DNA of 64,000 nt. Origin: Naegleria gruberi (taxonomy: Eukaryota). Position numbers and translations under genes: made by a program. The notes below the pieces were generated by a model that was not told where the DNA came from, did not search any database, and was given only the letters and a program-made list of their open reading frames with translations. The stretch lies in the NCBI GenBank assembly GCA_000004985.1, contig GG738856.1. One strand, 5' to 3'. Positions 14,467 to 63,149 of this stretch are shown here, in pieces. Within the stretch, counting starts at the first letter, position 1, and each line of letters begins with the position of its first letter.

Positions 14467-14507
14467 TTTTTTCAAGTTCACCAAACTTTGCAAAAAGAAA
14501 ATTATAT

Positions 14508-14579
14508 GCTGACGGACGGGATCGAACCGGCGACCAATGGCTTATTAGACCAACGCTCTACCGACTGAGCTACGCCAGC
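14508..14579 (-). tRNA. tRNA-Ile (anticodon AAT)
   Basis: 72-nt cloverleaf: GCTGGCG acceptor, TAGCTCAGTCGGTAGAGC D-arm, anticodon loop CTAATAA, GGTTCGATCC T-arm, T-run terminator downstream. It lies 42 nt upstream of the Arp ATG on the same strand. Confidence 0.9.
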
Positions 14580-14769
14580 TTCACATTCACACTAAATGTA
14601 TTATTGATAAATGCATAAACGACCATTGTATTCATATCAAAGCTTCAATAATTATTAACCATCATAATATTTCTTATTTTGAAATTTACAAAAAAGGTTT
14701 GTTACAGAACAAGCTTCCTTTTTAGCACTTTAAAAACCCAAAATGTTTCTTTTTAAAACTTAAAAAAAA

Positions 14770-17315: not shown

Positions 17316-18433
17316 TTAAATATAGAATTCATTAAGTGATGTTAATAATTTTGCTTCATCACTAATTCGATTGGCATAAACATAGAGTGATGTTAATTGT
17401 TTCATTCCACTTATGAACTTGGCTCCTTCATCACCAATTTCATTGTAACATATATCAAGTGATGTTAATTGTTTCATTTCACTTATCAATTTGGCTCCTT
17501 CATCAAGAATTATATTGTTAGAAATATTAAGTGATGTTAATTGTTTCATTCCACTGATGAATTCGGCTCCTTCATCATAAATTAGATTGTTAGAAATATC
17601 AAGTGATGTTAATTGTTTCATTTCACTTATGAATTTGGCTCCTTCAACACCCATTGGATTGCTAGAAATATCAAGTGATGTTAATTGTTTAATCTCGCTT
17701 AGATATTTGGCTCCTTTATCATCAATTCCACTCTTATAAATAGTAAGTGATGTTAATTGTTTCATTTCACTTATCAATTTGGCTCCTTCATCACTAATTT
17801 CATTCTTAGAAATATTAAGTGATGTTAATTGTTTCATTCCACTTATGAGTTTGGCTCCTTCAACACCAATTTCATTCTTAGAAATATCAAGTGATGTTAA
17901 TTGTTTCATTTCACTTATAGATTTGACTCCTTCATCATAAATTAGATTTCCAGAAATATCAAGTGATGTTAATTGTTTCATTTCACTTATTAATTTGGCT
18001 CCTTCAACACCAATTCCATTCTTAAAAATATTAAGTGATGTTAATTGTTTCATTTCACTTATTAATTTGGCTCCTTCTACACCAATTTGATTGTCAGAAA
18101 TATCAAGTGATGTCAATTGTTTAATCTCACTTATGAATTTGCCTCCTTCTACACCAATTTCATTGACACCAATACTAAGTGATGTTAATTGTTTCATTTC
18201 ACTTATGTATTTGGCTCCTTCCACACCAATTTCATTGTAATATATATAAAGTGATGTTAATTGTTTCATTTCACTTATGTATTTGGATCCTTCTACACCA
18301 ATTCGATTATTACATATATTAAGTGATGTTAATTGTTTCATTTCACTTATGGGTTTGGCTCCTTCATCACCAATTCGATTGTTAGAAATATCAAGTGATG
18401 TTAATTGTTTCATTTCACTTATGAATTTAGCTC
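17316..18433 (-). CDS. RNI-type leucine-rich-repeat protein (24-aa repeat ISEMKQLTSLDISNNRIGDEGAK). 5' partial, running into the assembly gap.
   Basis: At least 15 tandem 72-nt/24-aa LRR units. The ORF continues into the N run at 18434. Confidence 0.75.
17330..18433. repeat. tandem 72-nt coding repeat (LRR units)
   Basis: The motif agtgatgttaattgtttcat recurs with period 72 nt. Confidence 0.8.
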
Positions 18434-19088
18434 NNNNNNNNNNNNNNNNNNNNNNNNNNNNNNNNNNNNNNNNNNNNNNNNNNNNNNNNNNNNNNNNNNN
18501 NNNNNNNNNNNNNNNNNNNNNNNNNNNNNNNNNNNNNNNNNNNNNNNNNNNNNNNNNNNNNNNNNNNNNNNNNNNNNNNNNNNNNNNNNNNNNNNNNNNN
18601 NNNNNNNNNNNNNNNNNNNNNNNNNNNNNNNNNNNNNNNNNNNNNNNNNNNNNNNNNNNNNNNNNNNNNNNNNNNNNNNNNNNNNNNNNNNNNNNNNNNN
18701 NNNNNNNNNNNNNNNNNNNNNNNNNNNNNNNNNNNNNNNNNNNNNNNNNNNNNNNNNNNNNNNNNNNNNNNNNNNNNNNNNNNNNNNNNNNNNNNNNNNN
18801 NNNNNNNNNNNNNNNNNNNNNNNNNNNNNNNNNNNNNNNNNNNNNNNNNNNNNNNNNNNNNNNNNNNNNNNNNNNNNNNNNNNNNNNNNNNNNNNNNNNN
18901 NNNNNNNNNNNNNNNNNNNNNNNNNNNNNNNNNNNNNNNNNNNNNNNNNNNNNNNNNNNNNNNNNNNNNNNNNNNNNNNNNNNNNNNNNNNNNNNNNNNN
19001 NNNNNNNNNNNNNNNNNNNNNNNNNNNNNNNNNNNNNNNNNNNNNNNNNNNNNNNNNNNNNNNNNNNNNNNNNNNNNNNNNNNNNNNN
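18434..19088. other. assembly gap (655 N)
   Basis: Run of n. Confidence 1.
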
Positions 19089-19148: not shown

Positions 19149-20486
19149 TTAACAAAAGTAGAAATTTATCAAATCTGGAAGTTTTGAAAGCAATTCCAAT
19201 GAATCATCATTCACTGGATTGTTACAAATATCCAATTGAGTTAATTGATGCATTTGAGCAAGTGATTCAGCTCCATCATTTCCAACTCTATTGTCATTTA
19301 TCAAAAGTTCAGTCAATTTGGACATTCCAATAATTAAACCCGTTCCAATATCACCAATTTCATTCTCTCCAATGTCAAGATATAATAATTGGTCCAATTT
19401 ACTTATTGACTTCATTCCCTCATCGCCAATTTCATTGGTATTGATATCTAATTTTGTGAGTTGACTCAATTTGCTTAATGACTTGGCACCTTCTCCGCTA
19501 ATTCGATTATGAGAAATGTCAAGTTCAGTCAATTGTTCCATTATTCCAATATAGTGAGCTCCTTCGTTGCCAAGTACATTGTATCGAATATTAAGTTTAG
19601 TCAATTGATACATTTCACTAATAGCTTTGGATCCATAAGAGCCAATTTCATTATGACTAATTTCTAAGGTGGTCAATTGCTTCATCTCACTAATCAACCT
19701 TGCTCCTTCATCTCCAATTTTACAAGAGCTGATATTAAGGCAAATTAAATTATTGATGTGAAAAAGTGATTTAATGCCCTCAACTCCAATGTGATTTTCA
19801 GAAATTGAAAGATTGGTCAATTTGGTCATCCCACCAATATAACTGGCACCTTCATTGCCTATAAAATTGTTACTGATGTCGAGATCAGTTAATTGAGTCA
19901 TTTCACATATTGATTTGGTTCCTCCTGCATTGATATTGTTTCTGCTAATATTTAGTTTGGTCAATTGAGTCATTTCTCTAATAATTTTTGAACCTCTTTC
20001 AAGTAATTGATTATTGCTGATATCAAGGTCGGCCAAATGAGCGAGATTGCTTATCATATTGGCTCCCTCTGCATTTACCAACCATGAACTAACATCAAGT
20101 TTAGTTAATTTTCCACACATTCGAATAAAATTGCACAACTTTACAGTATCGCTAACTAATGTACCTATTCCAATTTTCATACTCGAAAAACATTCCAAGA
20201 ATTGACTCTTTCTCATCAAGTCAAACATTTCATCATTCCAATGATCCTTGTCAATGTAGTACTGAAATTCAATTGACAGTTTGGCATGCCGTTTAATACC
20301 TGCCATCCACTGCTTGGAAATTAGTACACAACTAGAGAGTATAAATTTCCAATCTCCGTTCAAATAGTTAATTATTTCATAGCAAATGTCATCAGAGAAT
20401 ATTTGATGGCTATCGGAAGGAATTTCAATCTCATAAAACATCTGATGTTTATCAAAAGCAAAATCTTCGGCTGGTAATTGATACAT
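19149..20486 (-). CDS. F-box/LRR (RNI-type) protein
   Basis: N-terminal F-box-like IFSDDICYEIINYL...LISKQW followed by about 12 LRRs with the GxEGAK motif. ATG at 20486. Confidence 0.8.
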   Translation of the reverse strand: MYQLPAEDFAFDKHQMFYEIEIPSDSHQIFSDDICYEIINYLNGDWKFILSSCVLISKQWMAGIKRHAKLSIEFQYYIDKDHWNDEMFDLMRKSQFLECFSSMKIGIGTLVSDTVKLCNFIRMCGKLTKLDVSSWLVNAEGANMISNLAHLADLDISNNQLLERGSKIIREMTQLTKLNISRNNINAGGTKSICEMTQLTDLDISNNFIGNEGASYIGGMTKLTNLSISENHIGVEGIKSLFHINNLICLNISSCKIGDEGARLISEMKQLTTLEISHNEIGSYGSKAISEMYQLTKLNIRYNVLGNEGAHYIGIMEQLTELDISHNRISGEGAKSLSKLSQLTKLDINTNEIGDEGMKSISKLDQLLYLDIGENEIGDIGTGLIIGMSKLTELLINDNRVGNDGAESLAQMHQLTQLDICNNPVNDDSLELLSKLPDLINFYFC

Positions 20487-20530: not shown

Positions 20531-21738
20531 CTAGTATTTATTTGAAAAGTAAGAAGAATTGGTGACATCACTTGGTTTTGGTCTATCTTCAGGATTCTTC
20601 TTTAACATTTGCATGACCATATCTACCAATTCAATGGAACAATTTGGAGAGCACTTGATAATATTTTCTCTGACAAGATTTTCTACATCCTTTTCGCTGG
20701 ACATGAGATTGAGATTGAGTTGACGTCTTTGGTGTTCCTTCAAATAGAGTTGAGTAATGCAAGTTTGTCTATCACCAGTCAGGCATTGATAGGCAGTTAC
20801 ACCAAGAGCGAAAATGTCTGTTTGGAAACAATTCTTACCTTGAACAATTGCTTCCCAACTCATGTAGATTGGTGTTCCAGCAAAGCCCATTTGAGTACTG
20901 AGTAGAGTATTTGCATCTCCTGTGACCAATGCTTGACTCAAATTAATATCACTACTGTCTGAAACTCTGGAAATGTTTGCATTATTACTAGTTGCTCCAC
21001 TAGTGGAATTTCTACCTTTCTTTGCCAAACCAAAATCACCCAATACAATATGAATCTGAGAACGGTGATAGTCAAAACTCTTGATAAATATGTTGGAAGG
21101 CTTAATATCTCTGTGAATCATATTGTACTCAGTGTTCATATAATCCAAAGCACTGCAAATTTGATAAATTAAGTGTGAGACGAGTGTTTCTGATAAAACG
21201 GTTTGGCCCAAGTAGCACTGATTGTTCATAAATTGTTCAAAATCTCCCAACTCGTAATAATCCATCTCCATACAAAGCATGTGTTGATTTGCATCAATAA
21301 AAACATCATTCACTCGTACAATATGTGGGTGTACCATTCTTAAAAGGTGTGTGGCTTCTCTGAGAGTTTGGTTAAGTTCATTCAAATCAGAGAAACGAAT
21401 AAGTTTGATGGCTTTCCATTGGAAGTTTTGCTTGGTATCTTGACCCTTGAAAACCAAACCAAATGAACCCTCACCAATTTTCATCAAATTAACAAATCTA
21501 TCAATGAGCATGGATTCACTTCCATTTAGTCTATTTTGAGAAGCATTACTGCTTAATTGAAGATTATTACCTGAAGAATCGTCCATCATACTCTTAGTTA
21601 GAGTCATGGCAGTTGAAACTTGAGAAATATTGAGGAAAGTTCTGATATTACCAGATCTATTAGAATATGGATCACTGCCACTCACAGGAGTTCCAACAAG
21701 ATTCAACTCAAAATTTTTATCCACAGAAAGAGTAAGAN
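20531..21738 (-). CDS. Ser/Thr protein kinase (5' end lost in the gap)
   Basis: GEGSFGLVFKG, AIK, HRDIKPSNIFI, GDFGLAKK and a SWEA-type activation segment. The N-terminus runs into the N gap. Confidence 0.85.
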
Positions 21739-21787
21739 NNNNNNNNNNNNNNNNNNNNNNNNNNNNNNNNNNNNNNNNNNNNNNNNN
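21739..21787. other. assembly gap (49 N)
   Basis: Run of n. Confidence 1.
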
Positions 21788-28975: not shown

Positions 28976-29049
28976 GCCTTCCTAGCTCAGTTGGCAGTAG
29001 CGCTGTCCTAGTAAGACAGAGGTCTTGGGTTCGATTCCCAAGGGAGGCA
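28976..29049 (+). tRNA. tRNA-Thr (anticodon AGT), copy 1
   Basis: Acceptor GCCTTCC/GGGAGGC, TAGCTCAGTTGG D-loop, anticodon loop CTAGTAA, GGTTCGATTCC T-arm, TTCTTTT terminator. Identical to the copy at 33310. Confidence 0.9.
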
Positions 29050-31574: not shown

Positions 31575-32579
31575 ATGAGCAAACGAATCAGACAAGATTT
31601 TGAAAATCATCAATTCATTAATTCGGAGGAAATATTCACTAATGATAATAATAATAATACGGAAGAGAAAGTAAAAAAGGTTGTGAAATTCGAACAAGAA
31701 ATATTTTCAGATGACATTTGTTTTGAAATAATTTCCATGATTGATAATTCGTGGTTTATTTTAAATAATTGTACTTTAATTTCAAAACAATTCTTTAATG
31801 TGATCAAGGAACGTTCAAAACTTTTTATTCAATTTAATAAGAAATTAACAAAGAAACAATTTCAATTATTTTTGAAAAGTCAATTTATGAATTGTATTGT
31901 TAATGTTACATTTTCTAGTTGGTTGCTTCACTCTTTGGAAGAAGCCAAATTCATAAGTGAAATGAAACAGTTGATATCACTTAATATTTCTGGCAATGAA
32001 TTTGGTGATGAAGAAGCCAAATTGATAAGTGAAATGAAACAATTAACATCACTTGATATTTCTGGCAATCGAATTGGTGATGAAGGAGCCAAATATCTAA
32101 GTGAAATGAAACAGTTGATATCACTCAATATTGGTGAAAATGAAATTGGTGATGAAGGAGCCAAATTGATAAGTGAAACCAGACAATTAGCATCACTTAA
32201 TATTTGTTTCACTCAAATTGGTATAGAAGAAGCCAAATTGATAAGTGAAATGAGACAATTAACATCACTTAATATTTCTGACAATCGAATTTGTGTAGAA
32301 GGAGCCAAATGGATAAGTGAAATGAGACAATTAACATCACTTGATATTTCTGGTAATCGAATTGGTGATGAAGGAGCCAAAACCATAAGTGAAATGAAAC
32401 AATTAACATCACTTGATATTTCTTACAATCGAATTGGTGATGAAGGAGCCAAATTCATAAGTGAAATGAAACAGTTGATATCACTCAATATTCGTGGCAA
32501 TCGAATTGGTGATGAAGGAGTCAAATATATAAGTGAAATGAAACAATTAACATCACTTACATATAAGGGATTAAATTGA
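31575..32579 (+). CDS. F-box/LRR (RNI-type) protein; the C-terminal end is possibly truncated or frameshifted
   Basis: IFSDDICFEIISMI...LISKQFF F-box-like, then about 9 repeats of ISEMKQLTSLDISGNRIGDEGAK. Confidence 0.75.
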   Translation: MSKRIRQDFENHQFINSEEIFTNDNNNNTEEKVKKVVKFEQEIFSDDICFEIISMIDNSWFILNNCTLISKQFFNVIKERSKLFIQFNKKLTKKQFQLFLKSQFMNCIVNVTFSSWLLHSLEEAKFISEMKQLISLNISGNEFGDEEAKLISEMKQLTSLDISGNRIGDEGAKYLSEMKQLISLNIGENEIGDEGAKLISETRQLASLNICFTQIGIEEAKLISEMRQLTSLNISDNRICVEGAKWISEMRQLTSLDISGNRIGDEGAKTISEMKQLTSLDISYNRIGDEGAKFISEMKQLISLNIRGNRIGDEGVKYISEMKQLTSLTYKGLN

Positions 32580-33309: not shown

Positions 33310-33383
33310 GCCTTCCTAGCTCAGTTGGCAGTAGCGCTGTCCTAGTAAGACAGAGGTCTTGGGTTCGATTCCCAAGGGAGGCA
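33310..33383 (+). tRNA. tRNA-Thr (anticodon AGT), copy 2
   Basis: Identical 74-nt sequence to 28976..29049, including 10 nt of 5' flank. Confidence 0.9.
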
Positions 33384-38000: not shown

Positions 38001-39864
38001 ATCACCAGCATATTGGTTGAGACAAACACCTGGAGCACATTTAGCAGCTGGGTCAACATTTGGACTATTACAAGTGCAAGAGCCATCATAGGTACAAGTT
38101 CCTCTACCATTGCAAGTGGATGGGTTACAAGAAATTGAACAATTTGCACCAACAAATCCACCAATACACTTTTCACAATATTCACCAGCATAATTTCCAT
38201 CACATTTACATTTCAAACCTTGACATTTACCCTTGCCACCACAAGTACCAGCATCTGTACACACTGGTTCTTTACAATCATCTCCCTTAAATGCAGGACT
38301 ACAACTAGAACAATTACGAGAACCAGTCCAAGCAGAATCACATTGACAAGTATCTGGACCAACACACTTACCGTGTTGAGAACAAGCATATTGACTATTT
38401 CTATCAACACCATGGCATGAGAATGATTGACAAGATGATCCTTCGAAACCAGCCAAGCATTTACAAGCATTTGGACCTTGGCATGAACCCTTACCATTAC
38501 ATACTGATCTATCAGTAGCTGGAGTATTGTAACATATTGGAATTTCACAATTTGCACCAGTGTATCCAGCAATACACTTCAAACAGTAGGTGCTAGGATC
38601 AAAATTACCTCTACATTGACAAACGTCGACATCAGTACATTTACCATTGAAGGAACAACCACCAGCTTGTTCAGTCTTACCATTACAAGTTTTGATATCG
38701 CATTCAATTCCTGAATAACCAGCTTTACAATTACAAGTATTTGGAGCAACACATTTACCTTTGCCACCACAAACTTGAGCCTCATCTTGAGGTTTACCGA
38801 AACAAGTTGNNNNNNNNNNNNNNNNNNNNNNNNNNNNNNNNNNNNNNNNNNNNNNNNNNCAGTTCCATTCACACAGCACCATTCTTACATTGAATATTAG
38901 CACATGGATCAACTGGACCTGGTGGAGGATTTGGATTGCTTCCATTATTATTAGTATTATTATTACCTGGATTTGGATTAGGTGTTGGACTACTTCCATT
39001 ATTATTATTATTATTAGGATTTGGATTTGGGTTGCTTCCATTGTTGTTGGTGTTATTATTACCTGGATTTGGATTAACAACTTGATCACAATGAGGACCA
39101 GTGAAACCTTGTTGACATTCACATGTTCCATTCACACAAGTACCATTACCACAGTGAATATTAGCACATGGATCAACTGGACCTGGTGGAGGATTTGGAT
39201 TGCTTCCATTGTTATTAGTATTATTATTACCTGGATTAGGATTAGGTGTTGGACTACTTTCATTATTGTTATTAGTATTATTATTAGGATTTGGATTTGG
39301 ATTAGGGTTAGGATTTGGGTTGCTTCCATTGTTATTGGTATTATTATTACCTGGATTTGGATTAACAACTTGATCACAATGAGGACCAGTGAAACCTTGT
39401 TGGCATTCACATGTTCCATTCACACAAGTACCATTACCACATTGAACATTGGCACATGGATCAACTGGACCTGGTGGAGGATTTGGATTACTGTTGTTAT
39501 TATTTCCAAGAACTACTTCACAATGAACACCATCAAAACCTTGATTACATTCGCACATACCAGAGGTCATGTTACAAACACCATGACCGCAATCAGAATT
39601 ATTAGAGCACAAAGGTGCACAGAGAGTATCATTATAATAGTAGCTAAGACTTCCATCGCAGCCACATGTGCCATTAAGACACACCAAATTTACACCATTC
39701 ATAGTTTGATTGAGTACATTATCATAGAAAGGATAATTACACTCAGAATCATTTTGGCACCCTTTCACTACAAAGCCATTAAGCAACAGCAGTGTAGAAA
39801 ACAGGGACACCAAAGCAAATACAAAAGTTAGCCTTGTTGTCTGCATATTTTTTCTTGAGGTCAT
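35082..39864 (-). CDS. giant secreted/type-I membrane protein: signal peptide, N/P-rich linker plus EGF-like module x3, tenascin-type EGF array, long Thr/Ser-rich beta-rich (Ig/TIG-like?) region, C-terminal TM. Interrupted by a 50-N gap.
   Basis: Signal peptide MQTTRLTFVFALVSLFSTLLLLNG. Repeated ...DPCANIQCGNGTCVNGTCECQQGFTGPHCDQV. A further EGF array (CNGKGSCQGPNACKCLAGFEGSSC...). C-terminal TM VAVNALMLILALVAVLMM. The frame changes across the gap. Confidence 0.75.
38810..38859. other. assembly gap (50 N)
   Basis: Run of n. Confidence 1.
38880..39520. repeat. three tandem copies of a coding repeat of about 265-277 nt (NPNP-rich linker plus EGF module)
   Basis: cacatggatcaactggacctggtggaggatttggatt recurs at 38903, 39168 and 39445. 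Confidence 0.8.
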
Positions 39865-43527: not shown

Positions 43528-44547
43528 TTAATGTAAGAGACGAGTCAAGTGTTTCATTCCCTTCACATACTTCACTCCTTCTTCCCCTATTCTGTTGAAA
43601 CTAATATCAAGAAGTCTCAATTGTTTCATTTCACTAATAGATTTGGCACCTTCAGGACCAATTCTATTTCCATCAATTCTAAGATCAGTCAAGTTTGGCA
43701 TTTGACTAATAGCCTTTGCTCCCTCATCTCCAATTTCATTATAACAAATATTGAGTGTGGTTAATTTATCTAGTTCACTTATAAAAATTGCTCCTTCTGA
43801 CCTTAGAGAATTAGTATAGGCTTTCAGATAAGTCAATTGCTTCATTTGGCTAATGGATTTTGCACCTTCAGCACCCAAATTATTTCCACAAATGTCAAGT
43901 TTAGTTAAATTTTTCATTTCACTGATACTTTTGATTCCTTCTTGATCTATATTACTGGAACTGATATTGAGGAACGTTAAATGATCCATGCCACTAATTG
44001 ATTTTGCACCTTCTGCGCAGAGATAATTTGCACTAATATCAAGTTCAGTCAATTTAGTCATTCCACTAATTAATTTTGCACCTTCTGTACCAATTTGACT
44101 CGAGTCAATGTATAGACTAGTTAATTGCTTGAATTCACTGACGATCTTTGCTCCTTGCAACCCAATTTCATTTCCGCCAACACAAAGTTTAGTCAAATTT
44201 CGCATTAGGCCAACAAGCTCCAAATACTTAATATCAAACACTTCCTCTACGGAAATAAATTTCAGAGATGTAAAACTCTCCAAAAATTGACTTTTCCTAA
44301 CAGCATTGAATTTGCTATCGGTAATGTTTTTGAATTCAATTGAAAGTTTTGCACGTTCATTGATCACATTTAAAAATTGCTTTGAAATGAGGGAACACTT
44401 GTACAAGATGAATTTTGGATTTTCAATATAGGATATTATTTCAAAGCAAACATCATCAGAAAATATTTCCTTCTTGCCGAGTTCGGTTTGCTGAGACAAA
44501 GGGGTTTCAACAAGTTCACTCATTTTTTTTGAGATGTCAAATTTCAT
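43528..44547 (-). CDS. F-box/LRR (RNI-type) protein
   Basis: IFSDDVCFEIISYI...LISKQF then about 9 LRRs with GxEGAK. Confidence 0.8.
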   Translation of the reverse strand: MKFDISKKMSELVETPLSQQTELGKKEIFSDDVCFEIISYIENPKFILYKCSLISKQFLNVINERAKLSIEFKNITDSKFNAVRKSQFLESFTSLKFISVEEVFDIKYLELVGLMRNLTKLCVGGNEIGLQGAKIVSEFKQLTSLYIDSSQIGTEGAKLISGMTKLTELDISANYLCAEGAKSISGMDHLTFLNISSSNIDQEGIKSISEMKNLTKLDICGNNLGAEGAKSISQMKQLTYLKAYTNSLRSEGAIFISELDKLTTLNICYNEIGDEGAKAISQMPNLTDLRIDGNRIGPEGAKSISEMKQLRLLDISFNRIGEEGVKYVKGMKHLTRLLH

Positions 44548-44718: not shown

Positions 44719-44789
44719 TGCGTCGACCGGGAATTGAACCCGGGTCACGGCGATGGCAACGCCGTATTCTACCACTAAACCATCGACGC
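44719..44789 (-). tRNA. tRNA-Gly (anticodon GCC)
   Basis: GCGTCGATGGTTTAGTGGTAGAAT..., anticodon stem CGGCG/CGCCG with loop TTGCCAT, T-arm CCGGGTTCAATTCCCGG. Confidence 0.9.
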
Positions 44790-50263: not shown

Positions 50264-51577
50264 AATAATCAAATACGAATCACCATTCGCCTCCAATTCC
50301 ACCAATTCCACAATATTCTCTGATGATATTTGTTATGAAATTCTATCCTATTTCCATGAGGAAAATGATGGAAAATTTATTCTACTAAATTGTTCGTTAA
50401 TTTGCAAGCAGTGGATGATGAGTGTGAAGAAATTCGGAAAGATTTCAATTAATATTAGAAATAGACTTTCGGATTCATTGATAGAAACAATCAAGAGAAA
50501 TCAATTTTTGGACTGTTTTGTGAAATTTGGAATTTATTCGAAAGATTTTGTAAAGTTTCATGAAATAATTACAATGATGAAGAATTTAAAAAGTCTTTGT
50601 ATTGGAAATGATTCTATTGGAGAGGAGGATTTAAAATTTATTGGAGAAATGAATCATTTAACTGAACTTGAATTGTGTGAATGTTTGACCGGAGATAAAG
50701 ATATTAGACCAATTAGTAGAATGTCTCAATTGACTAGATTAAATATTAGTAAGAATGTAAAGTATCATTTAAGCGATATCATTGAATTGAAGCAATTAAA
50801 AATACTAGAAATTGGAGAAAATTTCATAGGAGATGAACAAGTTGAACTACTTTCCAATCAATTGAAACAATTGACCATTTTACGAATTAATAATAACTTG
50901 ATTCATTCGCAAGGGGCTGAACATTTGAGTAAATCGGATCAATTGACTGAATTAGATTTAAGTGGAAATGCTTTAAATTATACAATTGGCTATGAAATTG
51001 CAAAAATTGAACAATTGAAAACTCTTCACCTTAGCAAACTTTCAATATATCAAATGGGATCAAGACGTCCAGTTGGATCAAGATTGAGTTCACAATTTGG
51101 ACAATTATTTCAATTGACCAGTCTTAGTATAAGTAATACTAATATTGGAGATGAGGGAGCCAAAGAAATTAGTAATTTAACACAATTGACTGAACTATAT
51201 GTACATGGAGCTGGAATTGGAAATACAGGAGCCAGATCATTAAGTGTTTTACATCAATTGGCCAAACTAGATATCAGTACTAATCAAATTGGAGATGAGG
51301 GAGTTAGATTATTCAAACAATTATCAAAATTAACAGAACTTGTTGTGTTTAATAATAGAATAGGAGATGTTGGAGCACAACTAATAAGTGAAATTCCTCA
51401 ATTGACCAATCTTGATGTTAATAACAATCAAATTGGAAATGAAGGGGCAAAATCAATGGAAATCAAATTGATGATCAAGGAGCTAAATTATTATGTGAAA
51501 TGAATCAAAGAAAAATTGAACTTTATGGAAATAATATTAGTAATGATTTCAATTATTTAATTGAATTATTGAGCTGA
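50264..51577 (+). CDS. F-box/LRR protein. It has no in-frame ATG upstream of the F-box (ATA sits at the position where the pseudogene copy has ATG). A frameshift near 51460 lies before the last LRRs.
   Basis: IFSDDICYEILSYF...LICKQWM F-box-like, then LRRs. The +1 frame continues GNQIDDQGAKLLCEMNQRKIELYGNNI...* to 51577. Confidence 0.6.
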
Positions 51578-51717: not shown

Positions 51718-52743
51718 TCATTGAATGAAACATTTTCCAATGGATGATGATTCCAAATCAATATCTGAATCTGGATTTCTAAATGCTATTGATTTGATAA
51801 GTAGTTCTAAAATTTTATCAAAATCATATCCTCTCACTGTTGATGATTCCATATAAGAAATTGCTCCAATTTTCTTTGCAAAATCAATGCCGTCCTTTGG
51901 CGAGACAGTTAGTGTATTTCTATTTCTATAATTCCTCAAATCAGTCATACATCCCATTACTACATATGGAGTTTGAGGAGAGAAGTGAGAAATTAAAGGT
52001 AAAATCTCCTTTTCAATTGTAATAAAATCAGGACACTGATCAATGGTTGGAATATTGATTTGTTGTTGATCATCAAAATTATGAAATGTGCTAAAACACA
52101 AACAATACAGATCCACATCCAATAATGCATTATCTACTTCTGAATTGTTATCTTCACCGGGAAATCTGCTATATTCACATAATTTAACAGTTGCAATTTT
52201 AAGATTATTCAATTTTGATGAGTATTGAAATTGATATTCAGAATTGGAATCCCACGTGTTATGAATTAATGGAATAGTCAACAAATTCTTTTGAATTATA
52301 CTTGATTTCCCACAAGATTTTGATCCAATAAACGTCACTTTAAAAATTGGCAATTTTCTTCTAATTTTCTTCATATTCAACACATCCTGATCCGAAACAT
52401 TCTTTCTAATAAACTCCTCCGATCTAAAACATGATAAATTCGATGAAAATTTCATTTCTGAAATTAAATATTCAAATTTCTTCCTTTCTGAACTAAAATT
52501 TTTCTTCCCAACTTGATCGCACAATAATGAATATTTCATCATGGTTAATAAATTAATTTTCCTCTCATTCATCAATTGTAAATTCTGCTCCGAAAGAAAT
52601 CTTTCATTGACACATTGTGTTAGGACAAAATTCGAATTAATTATTCGGAAGGACAAGATTTCTTCAAAGGGAAGAAAATTCAAAATAGAAAAAATAATTT
52701 CAGAGGGAAGAGATGAAAGGTGGCTTGTTAGGTTTTGTTGCAT
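51718..52743 (-). CDS. F-box domain fused to a Rho/Ras-like small GTPase-like domain (degenerate switch II)
   Basis: LPSEIIFSILNFLPFEEIL F-box. G1 FIGSKSCGKSSI. VVMGCMTDLRN resembles Rho LVGTKLDLRD. The C-terminal AISYMESSTVRGYDFDKILELLIKS is Rho-like. Confidence 0.7.
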   Translation of the reverse strand: MQQNLTSHLSSLPSEIIFSILNFLPFEEILSFRIINSNFVLTQCVNERFLSEQNLQLMNERKINLLTMMKYSLLCDQVGKKNFSSERKKFEYLISEMKFSSNLSCFRSEEFIRKNVSDQDVLNMKKIRRKLPIFKVTFIGSKSCGKSSIIQKNLLTIPLIHNTWDSNSEYQFQYSSKLNNLKIATVKLCEYSRFPGEDNNSEVDNALLDVDLYCLCFSTFHNFDDQQQINIPTIDQCPDFITIEKEILPLISHFSPQTPYVVMGCMTDLRNYRNRNTLTVSPKDGIDFAKKIGAISYMESSTVRGYDFDKILELLIKSIAFRNPDSDIDLESSSIGKCFIQ

Positions 52744-52814
52744 TTTTTTTTGAGAGTTTTTTTTACTTTAAAGTGCTTTACAATAGGTTTTACAATGAAT
52801 GTGACGAATAAGGA

Positions 52815-52887
52815 GAGACTGTAGCTCAGATGGGAGAGTATTCGTTAACCCAACGAATGGTCTTAGGTTCAAATCCTAACTGTTTCT
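52815..52887 (+). tRNA. tRNA-like gene with a Val(AAC)-like body but an aberrant anticodon loop (TAACCCA, A at position 33)
   Basis: Acceptor GAGACTG/CTGTTTC (one U-U mismatch), TAGCTCAGATGGGAGAGT D-arm, anticodon stem TTCGT/ACGAA, T-arm TTAGGTTCAAATCCTAA, T6 terminator. The loop lacks U33. Confidence 0.55.
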
Positions 52888-53268
52888 CTTTTTTAGGATT
52901 TCTTAATTTCGAAAGCAAGAAACCATACCACTACAAATCCATTAACACAATTTACAAATATACCAGCAACCCTTTCCAACCATACGTAAAGGGTGCACCA
53001 CATTACAAAGATATCAAATGTAGAATTTATTATTGTCATTCAATTCAAAATTGAAATTGACACATCGCTCTCTATCAATAAAATTCTAACGTAGCTCTTT
53101 CAATAAACGTTGCTATAATTAATTTATTTATTTACAATTTTCATTCCAGTTTTTCTTTTAGTTTTATTGAATGTGTATCAATTTCAATTTTGAATTGAAC
53201 GAGACATTAATAACGCAACGTTCTTTGCTTTTTTAAAGTATGATTAAGGGATTAATCCTTGGATATAA

Positions 53269-53340
53269 GCTGGCGTAGCTCAGCCGGTAGAGCGTTGGTC
53301 TAATAAGCCATTGGTCGCCGGTTCAATCCCGTCCGTCAGC
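53269..53340 (+). tRNA. tRNA-Ile (anticodon AAT), copy 2
   Basis: Differs from 14508..14579 by 2 nt (D-loop AGTCGG vs AGCCGG; T-loop GATCC vs AATCC). The 3' flank ATAATTTT(G/C) is shared. Confidence 0.9.
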
Positions 53341-53357
53341 AGATAATTTTGCCTTTC

Positions 53358-58418: not shown

Positions 58419-58474
58419 TGGGAGACTATGCTGACATATGTCATAAAACCTTAATGTTTCAGATTAGAATGTAA

Positions 58475-58546
58475 GGGACCATGGTCTAGTGGTATGATTC
58501 TCGCTTTGGGTGCGAGAGGCCGTGGGTTCGATTCCCACTGGTCCCC
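58475..58546 (+). tRNA. tRNA-Pro (anticodon TGG)
   Basis: GGGACCATGGTCTAGTGGTATGATTCTCGCTTTGGGTGCGAGAGGCCGTGGGTTCGATTCCCACTGGTCCCC, with anticodon loop TTTGGGT. Confidence 0.9.
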
Positions 58547-61121: not shown

Positions 61122-63149
61122 TTACCACTTCTTTTTGGGAACTCTCTTTTCAATGACATTTCTGAAAAATGTTTTTTGAGATCTGAGCAATAATTTCAAA
61201 TTTAACAAGACTGAAATGGCTCCAGATTTGGAAATATTAGATCCATCCACAGTAAATGATTGTAATTCTTGCATGAATTGACTAGTTGCAATGTATCCAA
61301 TTCCTTCATCAGTTATTTGATTGATTTTATAACATCTGAGACTTGTCAAAACGCATCCAATTTGTGAAATTAATTTCAATGAAGTATCGGTGAGAGATGT
61401 GTTTTCTGAAAGTGATAATGCAATTAAATTGACTGGTTGGGAAGAAGCCAAATATTGAATTCCTTCATCTGTTATTTGATTATTAGATAAATGTAAGATT
61501 TTCAATTTGGTAGTCAATGCAGATGATTCGAATCCTTTCATTCCCTTATCTCCAATTTTGTTATTGCTAACATTCAATGATGTCAAATTAACTAAATACG
61601 GACTAGTTAAAATTTCAATAAAATCCTGATCATTCAAATTGCAAAATGAAATATTCAACCGAGTCAAATTTAAAAATGCTGGATTTCTTGTAATTGAGGT
61701 GATTCTTCCATTTAGGTCCATATTATTTTCTTGAGAATACCAAGTAAAAAGTTCTCCTAAACCTAATTGTTTCAAATTGTGAAGGTATGGACTCTCAATG
61801 ACATCCTTTATCAATTCGAAATTACAGGAGAAACAAATACTTGTTAAATTTGACATGGTTGGTTGCGGAATTAATTTAGAGCTCATATCTGGCAATCTAA
61901 CGTACAATCTGTTCCTCTTGGTGAGATTGGTTAACTTGAGGAATGGGCTTTCGAATAGAATATTTAAATTCAATGAGATCCATTCAGCAGTTGGATACAC
62001 CTCCAAATAGGTCAGAGATGCAAAAGTTGGACAATTAGCAATATATCCCAAACATTCATCGTCCAAATTGTTATGACACAGATCCAGTACTTTCAAATTA
62101 GTTAAATAACAAGGCTTCTCAGTGAGAATTTTGAGTTTCTCTGAACCTATTCCAGAACATCCCACATTTAAAATTTCCAAATTACCCAAATATGGACTTG
62201 CAAATATTTGCGCATTTACTCCATTATCATATAAATTCAATATTCTCAATTTTGAAAATACTGGACTATTTGCAATGTGTAAAGATCCTTCCACAGAGAT
62301 ACAATTAAATTGCAAGTTTAAATTTGTTAAATTTGACAAATGTGTGCTCGTGGATAAATGTCTAAGGCCTTCATCTCCGATATAGTTATGCTGCAGATTG
62401 AGTGTTGTTAAATTCCTCATTTCAATATTATTCGAAAGCTCTATTGCGAATGCATTTCCAATATCACAATATCTCAAATTCAAACTTTTCAAATTTTTTA
62501 AATAGGGGCTTTTTACCAATTTCTGATAAGATTCGTCATTTGTTCTATACTCCATCATGAACGCACGTCTAGGACGATTACTAGATGCATTTGTGGAATT
62601 GTACAAATTGAGTTCTGTTAAATTTTTGAAATTTTCACTTTCTGTTAAAACTTCAAAACTTTCCTTTCCCAAATTATTAAATCTCAAATTCAAACTTTTC
62701 AAATTCTTGATAAATTCACTCTTTGAAAGAGCATTAATTCCTTCAAAATTAATTCCATTACTTCTCAAATTCAAATGTTGCAATTGACCAAAATCGGCAC
62801 AATTTGCAAGTAATTTCACTCCCTTATTTCCAATATAATTGAACGAAACATTCAAACTAGTAATATTCCTTCTCCAATTCACTTCAAAATCATCTTCCAT
62901 TGTCTCTGTGAATTCTTCATCATTGGCATTCGAATTGAAAAATAAATTCAACTTGTGTGGATGAATTTTGTGAATAGAAAAATCAAGATTCAATGCAAAT
63001 CTACTTGCTGCTTGTCTCCAATCCTTGGAAACAAGTGAAAATCGTTTGATAATTTGCAAATGATCAATAAATGTCATGATGTGAAAAATCATGTCCAGTG
63101 GAAGAATCACTGTTTGGTCAACAATATTCGGAGGAGGATTCATTTGCAT
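61122..63149 (-). CDS. F-box/LRR protein with classical RNI-like (NLRC-type) repeats
   Basis: N-terminal F-box-like LPLDMIFHIMTFIDHLQIIKRFSLVSKDW. About 18 LRRs (NLRSNGINFEGINAL...NLRFNNLGKESF...). Confidence 0.8.
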   Translation of the reverse strand: MQMNPPPNIVDQTVILPLDMIFHIMTFIDHLQIIKRFSLVSKDWRQAASRFALNLDFSIHKIHPHKLNLFFNSNANDEEFTETMEDDFEVNWRRNITSLNVSFNYIGNKGVKLLANCADFGQLQHLNLRSNGINFEGINALSKSEFIKNLKSLNLRFNNLGKESFEVLTESENFKNLTELNLYNSTNASSNRPRRAFMMEYRTNDESYQKLVKSPYLKNLKSLNLRYCDIGNAFAIELSNNIEMRNLTTLNLQHNYIGDEGLRHLSTSTHLSNLTNLNLQFNCISVEGSLHIANSPVFSKLRILNLYDNGVNAQIFASPYLGNLEILNVGCSGIGSEKLKILTEKPCYLTNLKVLDLCHNNLDDECLGYIANCPTFASLTYLEVYPTAEWISLNLNILFESPFLKLTNLTKRNRLYVRLPDMSSKLIPQPTMSNLTSICFSCNFELIKDVIESPYLHNLKQLGLGELFTWYSQENNMDLNGRITSITRNPAFLNLTRLNISFCNLNDQDFIEILTSPYLVNLTSLNVSNNKIGDKGMKGFESSALTTKLKILHLSNNQITDEGIQYLASSQPVNLIALSLSENTSLTDTSLKLISQIGCVLTSLRCYKINQITDEGIGYIATSQFMQELQSFTVDGSNISKSGAISVLLNLKLLLRSQKTFFRNVIEKRVPKKKW

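Follow-up and report, generated by a model that had tools for sequence, protein, structure and literature searches.

A tRNA-shaped gene of Naegleria gruberi with a disabled anticodon loop, probably a non-decoding variant of Pol III type

A tRNA-like gene of Naegleria gruberi, located at positions 52815-52887 (plus strand) of a 64,000-nucleotide stretch of contig GG738856.1 (assembly GCA_000004985.1; this whole stretch is referred to here as the window), is best explained as a non-decoding tRNA gene variant of Pol III type, in function a pseudogene, a reading to which we assign a probability of about 60%. According to this proposal, the locus would be a tRNA-shaped nuclear gene that has lost its decoding ability or never had it, and its transcript would provide a weak, AT-rich tRNA body, possibly processed at its ends and, given the G3-U70 pair, perhaps even charged with alanine. 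In the anticodon loop, A33 would abolish the U-turn, C37 would replace the usual purine, the anticodon ACC is foreign to eukaryotes, and a U32-A38 pair would close the loop to five nucleotides, so that the RNA should not work as a ribosomal adaptor. The gene would be neither a frameshift suppressor nor a working tRNA-Gly or tRNA-Val; rather, it would represent an irregular copy of the sort expected among the approximately 924 tDNAs of this organism. The elements of the gene and its immediate flanks, together with the canonical tRNA genes used for comparison, are the following.

52815-52887, plus strand: the tRNA-like gene, 73 nt corresponding to standard positions 1-73, labelled tRNA-Gly(ACC) by ARAGORN
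52797-52804, plus strand: GAATGTGA motif upstream of the tRNA-like gene, a tentative shared upstream element
52810-52814, plus strand: leader AAGGA, which can pair with TCTTT at 52887-52891
52817, plus strand: G3, which pairs with T70 (52884) to give G3-U70, the third acceptor pair, shown as 'g+t' in the ARAGORN drawing
52820, plus strand: T6, mismatched with T67 (52881), the sole unpaired stem position, with 20 of the 21 pairs kept
52822-52833, plus strand: A box (T8-G19), TAGCTCAGATGG, intact, with U8, A14, G18, G19 and A21 all present
52846-52852, plus strand: anticodon loop TAACCCA, that is, U32 A33 A34 C35 C36 C37 A38
52866-52876, plus strand: B box (G52-C62), GGTTCAAATCC, intact
52887, plus strand: discriminator U73, which is A or C in the other six tRNAs of the window
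52889-52894, plus strand: T6 run, resembling a Pol III terminator and starting at the second base after the discriminator
14507-14579 (minus), 28976-29049 (plus), 33310-33383 (plus), 44719-44789 (minus), 53269-53341 (plus) and 58475-58546 (plus): the six canonical tRNA genes

The first line of evidence concerns the tRNA nature of the locus. Divided into its structural segments, the sequence reads GAGACTG-TA-GCTC-AGATGGGA-GAGT-A-TTCGT-TAACCCA-ACGAA in its 5' part and, after ACGAA, TGGTC-TTAGG-TTCAAAT-CCTAA-CTGTTTC-T in its 3' part. For 52815-52887(+), ARAGORN returned a cloverleaf identical to this layout, under the name tRNA-Gly(acc), and the Rfam tRNA family RF00005 matched the same positions with 46.1 bits over model positions 1-71 of 71 (E = 1.2e-6 over the 64-kb window and 5.4e-9 locally). 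This match is far above chance. Infernal-type scoring of this kind had been proposed in an earlier note on this DNA, and the result lies above the gathering score of 29; likewise, the coordinates given there, the seven-nucleotide loop TAACCCA, the A33 and the T6 run all proved correct by sequence, ARAGORN and RF00005. The covariance model aligned all arms with high posterior probability, excepting the anticodon loop, which it skipped by means of a local-end jump of six positions. All 11 invariant bases that were checked (U8, A14, G18, G19, A21, G53, T54, T55, C56, A58 and C61) are present, and the bases for the U8-A14, G15-C48, G18/G19-T-loop and T54-A58 contacts are all intact. The gene thus has what the structural tRNA family demands, namely a full cloverleaf scoring above the curated threshold and the bases of the tertiary contacts.

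The arms had previously been described as canonical throughout. This holds for the cloverleaf as such and for 20 of its 21 stem pairs, but not for the U6-U67 mismatch, for G3-U70 or for G10-U25, the latter in the D stem; the T stem carries A51-U63. Four points were absent from that description: C37, G3-U70, U73 and the low GC content throughout the body. Non-standard stem pairs (U27-U43 and C50-U64) occur even in the canonical tRNA-Ile(AAT) genes of the window, at 14507-14579(-) and 53269-53341(+) and, therefore, one stem mismatch alone is no sign of a dead gene here.

When set beside the six canonical genes, the tRNA-like gene has the lowest Rfam score of the seven (46.1 bits, the others ranging from 53.9 to 66.9), the lowest ARAGORN score (109.0, compared with 113-125) and the lowest GC content (42%, compared with 55-60%). 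Its stems are built from 9 G-C and 9 A-U pairs, while those of the others contain 11-15 G-C and 3-5 A-U pairs, and its cloverleaf has an energy of -11.8 kcal/mol, to be compared with -16 to -27.5 kcal/mol for the canonical genes; the same sequence reaches an energy 7 kcal/mol lower in its minimum-free-energy fold. Neither BLASTN nor Rfam at E up to 10 detected a paralogue or a weak tRNA relic of this gene within the window.

The evidence that carries the non-decoding interpretation lies in the anticodon loop. It has been reported that U is "almost invariant" at position 33 and that position 37 is an "invariable purine" (PMC6103715), and, for eukaryotes, that tRNA-Gly(ACC) is "completely absent" (PMC4928997). 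Our gene departs from a decoding-competent elongator tRNA in all three respects: it has A33 (52847) in place of the U33 required for the U-turn, C37 (52851) in place of a purine, and an ACC anticodon from outside the eukaryotic repertoire. T33 and a purine at position 37 are found in all six canonical tRNAs of the window, and the tRNA-like gene alone combines A33 with C37; the normal Gly gene of the window is a Gly-GCC gene (44719-44789, minus strand). In the minimum-free-energy fold, U32 pairs with A38, leaving a five-nucleotide loop, AACCC, and A26 also pairs with U44, which results in a long stem. We infer that neither of the known types of RNA editing, A-to-I and C-to-U, could restore U33 or a purine at position 37. 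Outside the loop, the U6-U67 mismatch, U73 and G3-U70 constitute further departures from a working tRNA.

Frameshift-suppressor tRNAs possess an enlarged, eight-nucleotide anticodon loop with a four-base anticodon. The suggestion that the gene is frameshift-suppressor-like did not survive the analysis, because the loop has seven nucleotides, not eight, in both the ARAGORN and the Rfam structures, and five in the minimum-free-energy fold. Two alternative registers were judged by eye: a nine-nucleotide loop, TTAACCCAA, placed on a shifted stem of four or five base pairs, which would keep U33 and AAC, and an insertion of 'AA' into a Gly(CCC) loop, TTCCCAA. Both were dropped because additional insertions or deletions would be required, either at position 26 or within the variable loop, and because neither program favours them. 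A telomerase template was also considered and rejected, since the TAACCC of the loop represents one repeat unit only, within a loop closed by a stem.

In contrast with the loop, the signals for expression are well kept. The A box consensus is TRGCNNAnnnGG, and TAGCTCAGATGG fits it. The B box contains a G57A variant that is also present in the canonical Ile-AAT gene at 53269 and in the Gly-GCC gene of the window, and the other six tRNA genes have T4-T6 runs within about 15 nt downstream. Judged by sequence, the prerequisites for transcription by TFIIIC, TFIIIB and Pol III thus appear to be present at 52815-52887. In the primary transcript, pairing of AAGGA with TCTTT would add five pairs, giving an acceptor helix of 12 positions (11 pairs plus U6-U67), and the fold of 52805-52894 has an energy of -25.7 kcal/mol (z -2.56). 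The motif GAATGTRA occurs no more than 20 nt upstream, on the gene strand, in three of the seven tRNA or tRNA-like genes (14581-14588 on the minus strand, 52797-52804 and 58467-58474 on the plus strand), while the two strands of the 64-kb window together contain it 20 times; in Naegleria it may contribute to Pol III promoters from an upstream position or mark start sites, bearing in mind that the motif was picked post hoc from the same data. A bacterial promoter and terminator scan is not meaningful for a eukaryote.

The question of how such a body could arise was approached by simulating neutral, AT-biased substitution from the canonical tRNAs of the window until 42% GC was reached. Under the general decay model, the sequences ended with 8-9 stem mismatches on average, and the combination of at most one mismatch with all 11 invariant bases was found in no more than 1 in 10,000 runs. 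Under the most lenient model, which allowed GC-to-AT transitions only and the minimum number of changes, such preservation appeared in 0-2.3% of the runs. Neutral decay predicts a loss of stems and invariant bases in step with divergence, and this is not what is observed, a result that is indicative only. With 20 of 21 pairs and 11 of 11 invariant bases retained, even though the GC content is down to 42% and identity to the canonical tRNAs of the window does not exceed 58%, the body seems too well kept, which argues against a long-dead gene. The simulations thus point either to selection on the structure or the promoter, or to a parent tRNA that was already AT-rich. Plain neutral decay from a GC-rich tRNA would, on these indicative grounds, explain the body poorly, and no function is thereby established. 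Transitions of the RIP type (GC to AT) were rejected as the source of the A-U pairs, given that the transition-only simulation rarely keeps the structure.

The genomic setting is nuclear DNA of N. gruberi with ordinary Naegleria genes. The window has a GC content of 33%, long, intron-poor ORFs and many F-box/LRR genes, and its six canonical tRNA genes (two Ile-AAT, two Thr-AGT, one Gly-GCC and one Pro-TGG) are of eukaryotic type. Their density, six in 64 kb, is about four times the genome average of one per approximately 44 kb, as calculated from 924 tDNAs in a genome of 41 Mb. The two Thr-AGT genes do not differ from each other, even in the 9 nt adjoining them on either side, and the two Ile-AAT copies differ at two positions, one in the D loop and the other being G57A in the B box. 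The genome of N. gruberi has been reported to contain 924 tDNAs, of which 41 were flagged as pseudogenes (PMC2888827), so that irregular copies are to be expected. The tRNA-like gene adjoins the canonical tRNA-Ile gene at 53269-53341.

Several other features of the window were recorded. Between the tRNA-like gene and tRNA-Ile there is an inverted repeat of 40 bp, 87.5% complementary (53027-53064 and 53174-53213), and the region 53027-53213 could be a small foldback or MITE-like element; a minus-strand transcript of 52895-53215 would form a long hairpin (-75.6 kcal/mol, z -4.6), with no match in Rfam. Runs of N, representing scaffold gaps or masked bases, are found at 18434-19088, 21738-21787, 25221 and 38810-38859, in or beside LRR and EGF-repeat genes, and none of them is near 52815-52887. 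At least six paralogous leucine-rich-repeat genes, with repeats of the type '...ISEMKQLTSLDISxNxIGDEGAK...', belong to a large family dispersed over the region, and some of them seem, by eye, to carry an N-terminal F-box-like segment.

17316-18413, 19149-20486, 31575-32579, 43528-44547, 50415-51503 and 61122-63149: the leucine-rich-repeat paralogues

On the other side of the tRNA-like gene, ORF 51718-52743, on the minus strand, is divergent from it and starts 71 nt away. It encodes 341 amino acids with an N-terminal F-box (residues 9-39, Pfam E 1.6e-4) and a Ras-family domain, and it is this N-terminal F-box that places the translation start at 52743. The N. gruberi protein found in the databases is 100% identical and has 245 amino acids, beginning at residue 97 and without the F-box. 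The public gene model is, therefore, probably truncated at its 5' end.

The preservation of the body and the proximity of this ORF bear on the main rival interpretation, which we regard as rather unlikely yet worth keeping in sight: selection would have maintained a tRNA-like element that does not decode, acting as a boundary or promoter bound by TFIIIC and Pol III or giving rise to a stable tRNA-like RNA. Neutral decay, as just described, explains the preservation of the body poorly, and the A and B boxes are intact, as is the terminator. Leishmania, a fellow member of Discoba, depends for transcription of its U2 snRNA on a tRNA-like sequence that is itself transcribed and whose A and B boxes are conserved (PMC4950102). 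By analogy with this trypanosomatid model, the locus might serve the divergent F-box/Ras gene, whose translation start lies only 71 nt away, or an undetected small RNA, and a boundary or promoter role for the F-box/Ras gene is conceivable. Against this, no snRNA, 7SL or other known small RNA was found adjacent to the locus in Rfam searches at E up to 10, and for a promoter role the A and B boxes would suffice, with no need for an intact acceptor stem or anticodon stem.

The question of origin was addressed by scoring positional identity between the gene and a set of references: four N. gruberi tRNAs, the human Val-AAC-1-1 and Ala-AGC-2-1 tRNAs (sequences taken from PMC4928997) and a phage tRNA-Ala. 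The values ranged from 45 to 59%, and they did not exceed 58% for the four distinct canonical sequences of the window. A body resembling tRNA-Val(AAC) had been claimed, and part of the claim stands: the anticodon stem agrees with that of human Val-AAC-1-1 at 8 of 10 positions (four of five on either side). The D stem, however, agrees at only one of eight, and the overall identity of 50%, obtained with a reference from a distant species, is no better than that to unrelated tRNAs; with C35 instead of A35, U73 instead of A73 and no Val-type body, the gene does not qualify as a tRNA-Val(AAC). Nor does it qualify as a eukaryotic cytosolic tRNA-Gly: C35 and C36 are present, but so are U73, A2-U71 and G3-U70, and the identity to the Gly-GCC gene of the window is 45%. 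Besides C35 and C36, eukaryotic Gly identity reportedly relies on A73 and on G/C pairs at acceptor positions 1-3 (Giege et al. 1998, cited in PMC4928997).

The G3-U70 pair is the alanine identity pair and the main determinant for AlaRS. It is present in our gene, but together with U73 and without an NGC anticodon, and the identity to the Ala references is 51% for human Ala-AGC and 59% for the phage tRNA-Ala. The 20-mer of the D arm, TGTAGCTCAGATGGGAGAGT, yielded one exact match in IMG/VR, located in a phage tRNA-Ala(GGC). This match and G3-U70, both pointing towards Ala, should be taken as a lead only, because G3-U70 may derive from G3-C70 by a single C-to-T change and because U73 is not Ala-like.

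Such observations also touch on the notion, improbable in our view, of a relic of an AT-rich foreign or organellar tRNA (from a mitochondrial insertion, a giant virus or an endosymbiont) that is decaying in the nucleus. Well-paired, AT-rich tRNAs are normal in such sources, and a gene with 42% GC and 9 A-U pairs, instead of the 3-5 found in the canonical genes, is atypical among the nuclear tRNAs of the window. The D arm is bacterial-like, as indicated by the occurrence of its 20-mer in the phage tRNA-Ala(GGC), and U73 is what bacterial Gly tRNAs carry as discriminator. When the 19-nt anticodon arm was used in exact scans, however, there was no hit in viral contigs and there were six in contigs from metagenomes and prokaryotic genomes, none of the six within a tRNA, so that this arm occurs in no tRNA of the viral, prokaryotic-genome or metagenome collections and the six hits are attributable to chance. 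A structured pattern made of the D arm and the TAACCCA loop gave no match in viral contigs, and the 22-mer of the T arm gave a single one, outside any tRNA called by ARAGORN and sharing no sequence upstream of the T arm. The presence of ordinary Naegleria genes around the locus, with a canonical tRNA-Ile next to it, speaks against a foreign origin as well, and so do the Pol III-style T6 terminator and an upstream motif common to two other nuclear tRNA genes.

Even less credit can be given to a working, non-canonical decoder, be it a Gly(ACC) tRNA reading GGU, an Ala-charged mistranslator of Gly or Val codons, or a tRNA that reads quadruplets or in a shifted register. In its favour, the core of the L-shape is kept, glycine identity includes C35 and C36, AlaRS recognises G3-U70 as a determinant, and a human tRNA-Gly engineered to carry ACC is still charged by GlyRS (PMC4928997). 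In spite of this, A33 and C37 would remove the U-turn and the 3' stacking purine, the loop has seven nucleotides, not eight or nine, and tends to close to five, and ACC is missing from eukaryotic tRNA sets (PMC4928997). Moreover, U73 and A2-U71 are at odds with eukaryotic Gly identity, and an Ala-charged reader of Gly or Val codons would be harmful. Among the classes offered in the earlier note, the pseudo-tRNA or tRNA-derived RNA stays the likeliest, given a broken loop within a sound body with promoter and terminator, while A33, C37, U73 and ACC make the non-canonical decoder unlikely.

A more speculative variant, to which we grant only a slim chance, would be a eukaryotic non-proteinogenic tRNA-like RNA: transcribed by Pol III, selected for its shape, possibly charged with alanine or glycine, and acting off the ribosome, whether by donating aminoacyl groups, as a decoy or as a chromatin element bound by TFIIIC. 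If this were true, alanine could be attached by virtue of G3-U70 or glycine by virtue of C35/C36, the closed loop with A33 and C37 and the weak A51-U63 pair of the T stem would bar ribosomal use, and the RNA might act as a decoy for a synthetase or another enzyme. In Staphylococcus, C37 and A51-U63 are among the features that keep a non-proteinogenic tRNA-Gly off the ribosome (PMC6103715). Finally, it is hardly credible that this is an otherwise normal tRNA gene whose anticodon loop was misread or misassembled: nothing direct favours such an error beyond the existence of scaffold gaps elsewhere in the window, none of which is near the locus, any canonical eukaryotic loop would take at least two separate changes, either at both 33 and 37 or as two indels, in addition to a different anticodon, and the rest of the gene is atypical as well (low GC, U73, G3-U70 and U6-U67).

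If the gene is indeed a crippled, non-decoding copy, its practical consequence is one of caution in annotation, since software reports it as tRNA-Gly(ACC), which is not expected in eukaryotes, and it should be excluded from the decoding repertoire of Naegleria and from estimates of codon adaptation. Its wider interest resides only in the contrast between a well-kept, AT-rich body with Pol III signals and a disabled anticodon loop. Should orthologues display the same design, the locus could be counted as a candidate tRNA-like RNA or tDNA element kept by selection for something other than decoding, in a free-living organism of the Discoba, the group whose trypanosomatids already have known tRNA-like promoter elements.

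Several known systems offer points of comparison. In the mouse, loci named 'tRNA-Gly-ACC-1-1' are regarded as annotation artefacts of mutated Val genes that are, nevertheless, transcribed by Pol III (PMC13169703). These are likewise eukaryotic loci for which software calls the forbidden Gly(ACC); they have a Val body, a normal loop with U33 and R37, and a point change in the anticodon, whereas in the N. gruberi gene positions 33 and 37 are broken and the body is not Val-like beyond the anticodon stem. The tRNA-like extragenic promoters of Pol III snRNA genes in trypanosomatids (Leishmania U2; PMC4950102), which also belong to Discoba, are degenerate tRNA-like sequences that keep the A and B boxes and are transcribed. 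The N. gruberi gene, in contrast, keeps the full cloverleaf and not the boxes alone, and in its flanks no snRNA, 7SL or other Rfam family of the kind that accompanies such promoters was found at E up to 10.

Frameshift suppressors of the sufD/SUF16 type, derived from tRNA-Gly, share with our gene a C-rich ACCC anticodon region in a Gly-like loop. Theirs, however, is a loop of eight nucleotides that retains U33, while that of the N. gruberi gene has seven and contains neither U33 nor a purine at position 37. The non-proteinogenic tRNA-Gly of Staphylococcus has a Gly-type anticodon, C37 and A51-U63 in common with our gene; these tRNAs, in contrast, keep U33 and serve peptidoglycan bridge synthesis, and the likeness is confined to two positions in an unrelated setting. 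To our knowledge, Naegleria has no peptidoglycan-bridge pathway. With tRNA-Ala, the gene has the G3-U70 pair in common, and its D arm is the same as in the phage tRNA-Ala(GGC); its discriminator, however, is U73 in place of A73, and its anticodon is not of the NGC type. The low-scoring and pseudogene tDNAs that tRNAscan-SE reports in eukaryotes (PMC2888827) resemble the gene in being detected by a covariance model with a lower score and in having a defective loop and an acceptor mismatch. The gene differs from them in having no recognisable parent among the tRNAs compared, and in keeping its stems, tertiary bases, A and B boxes and terminator unusually well.
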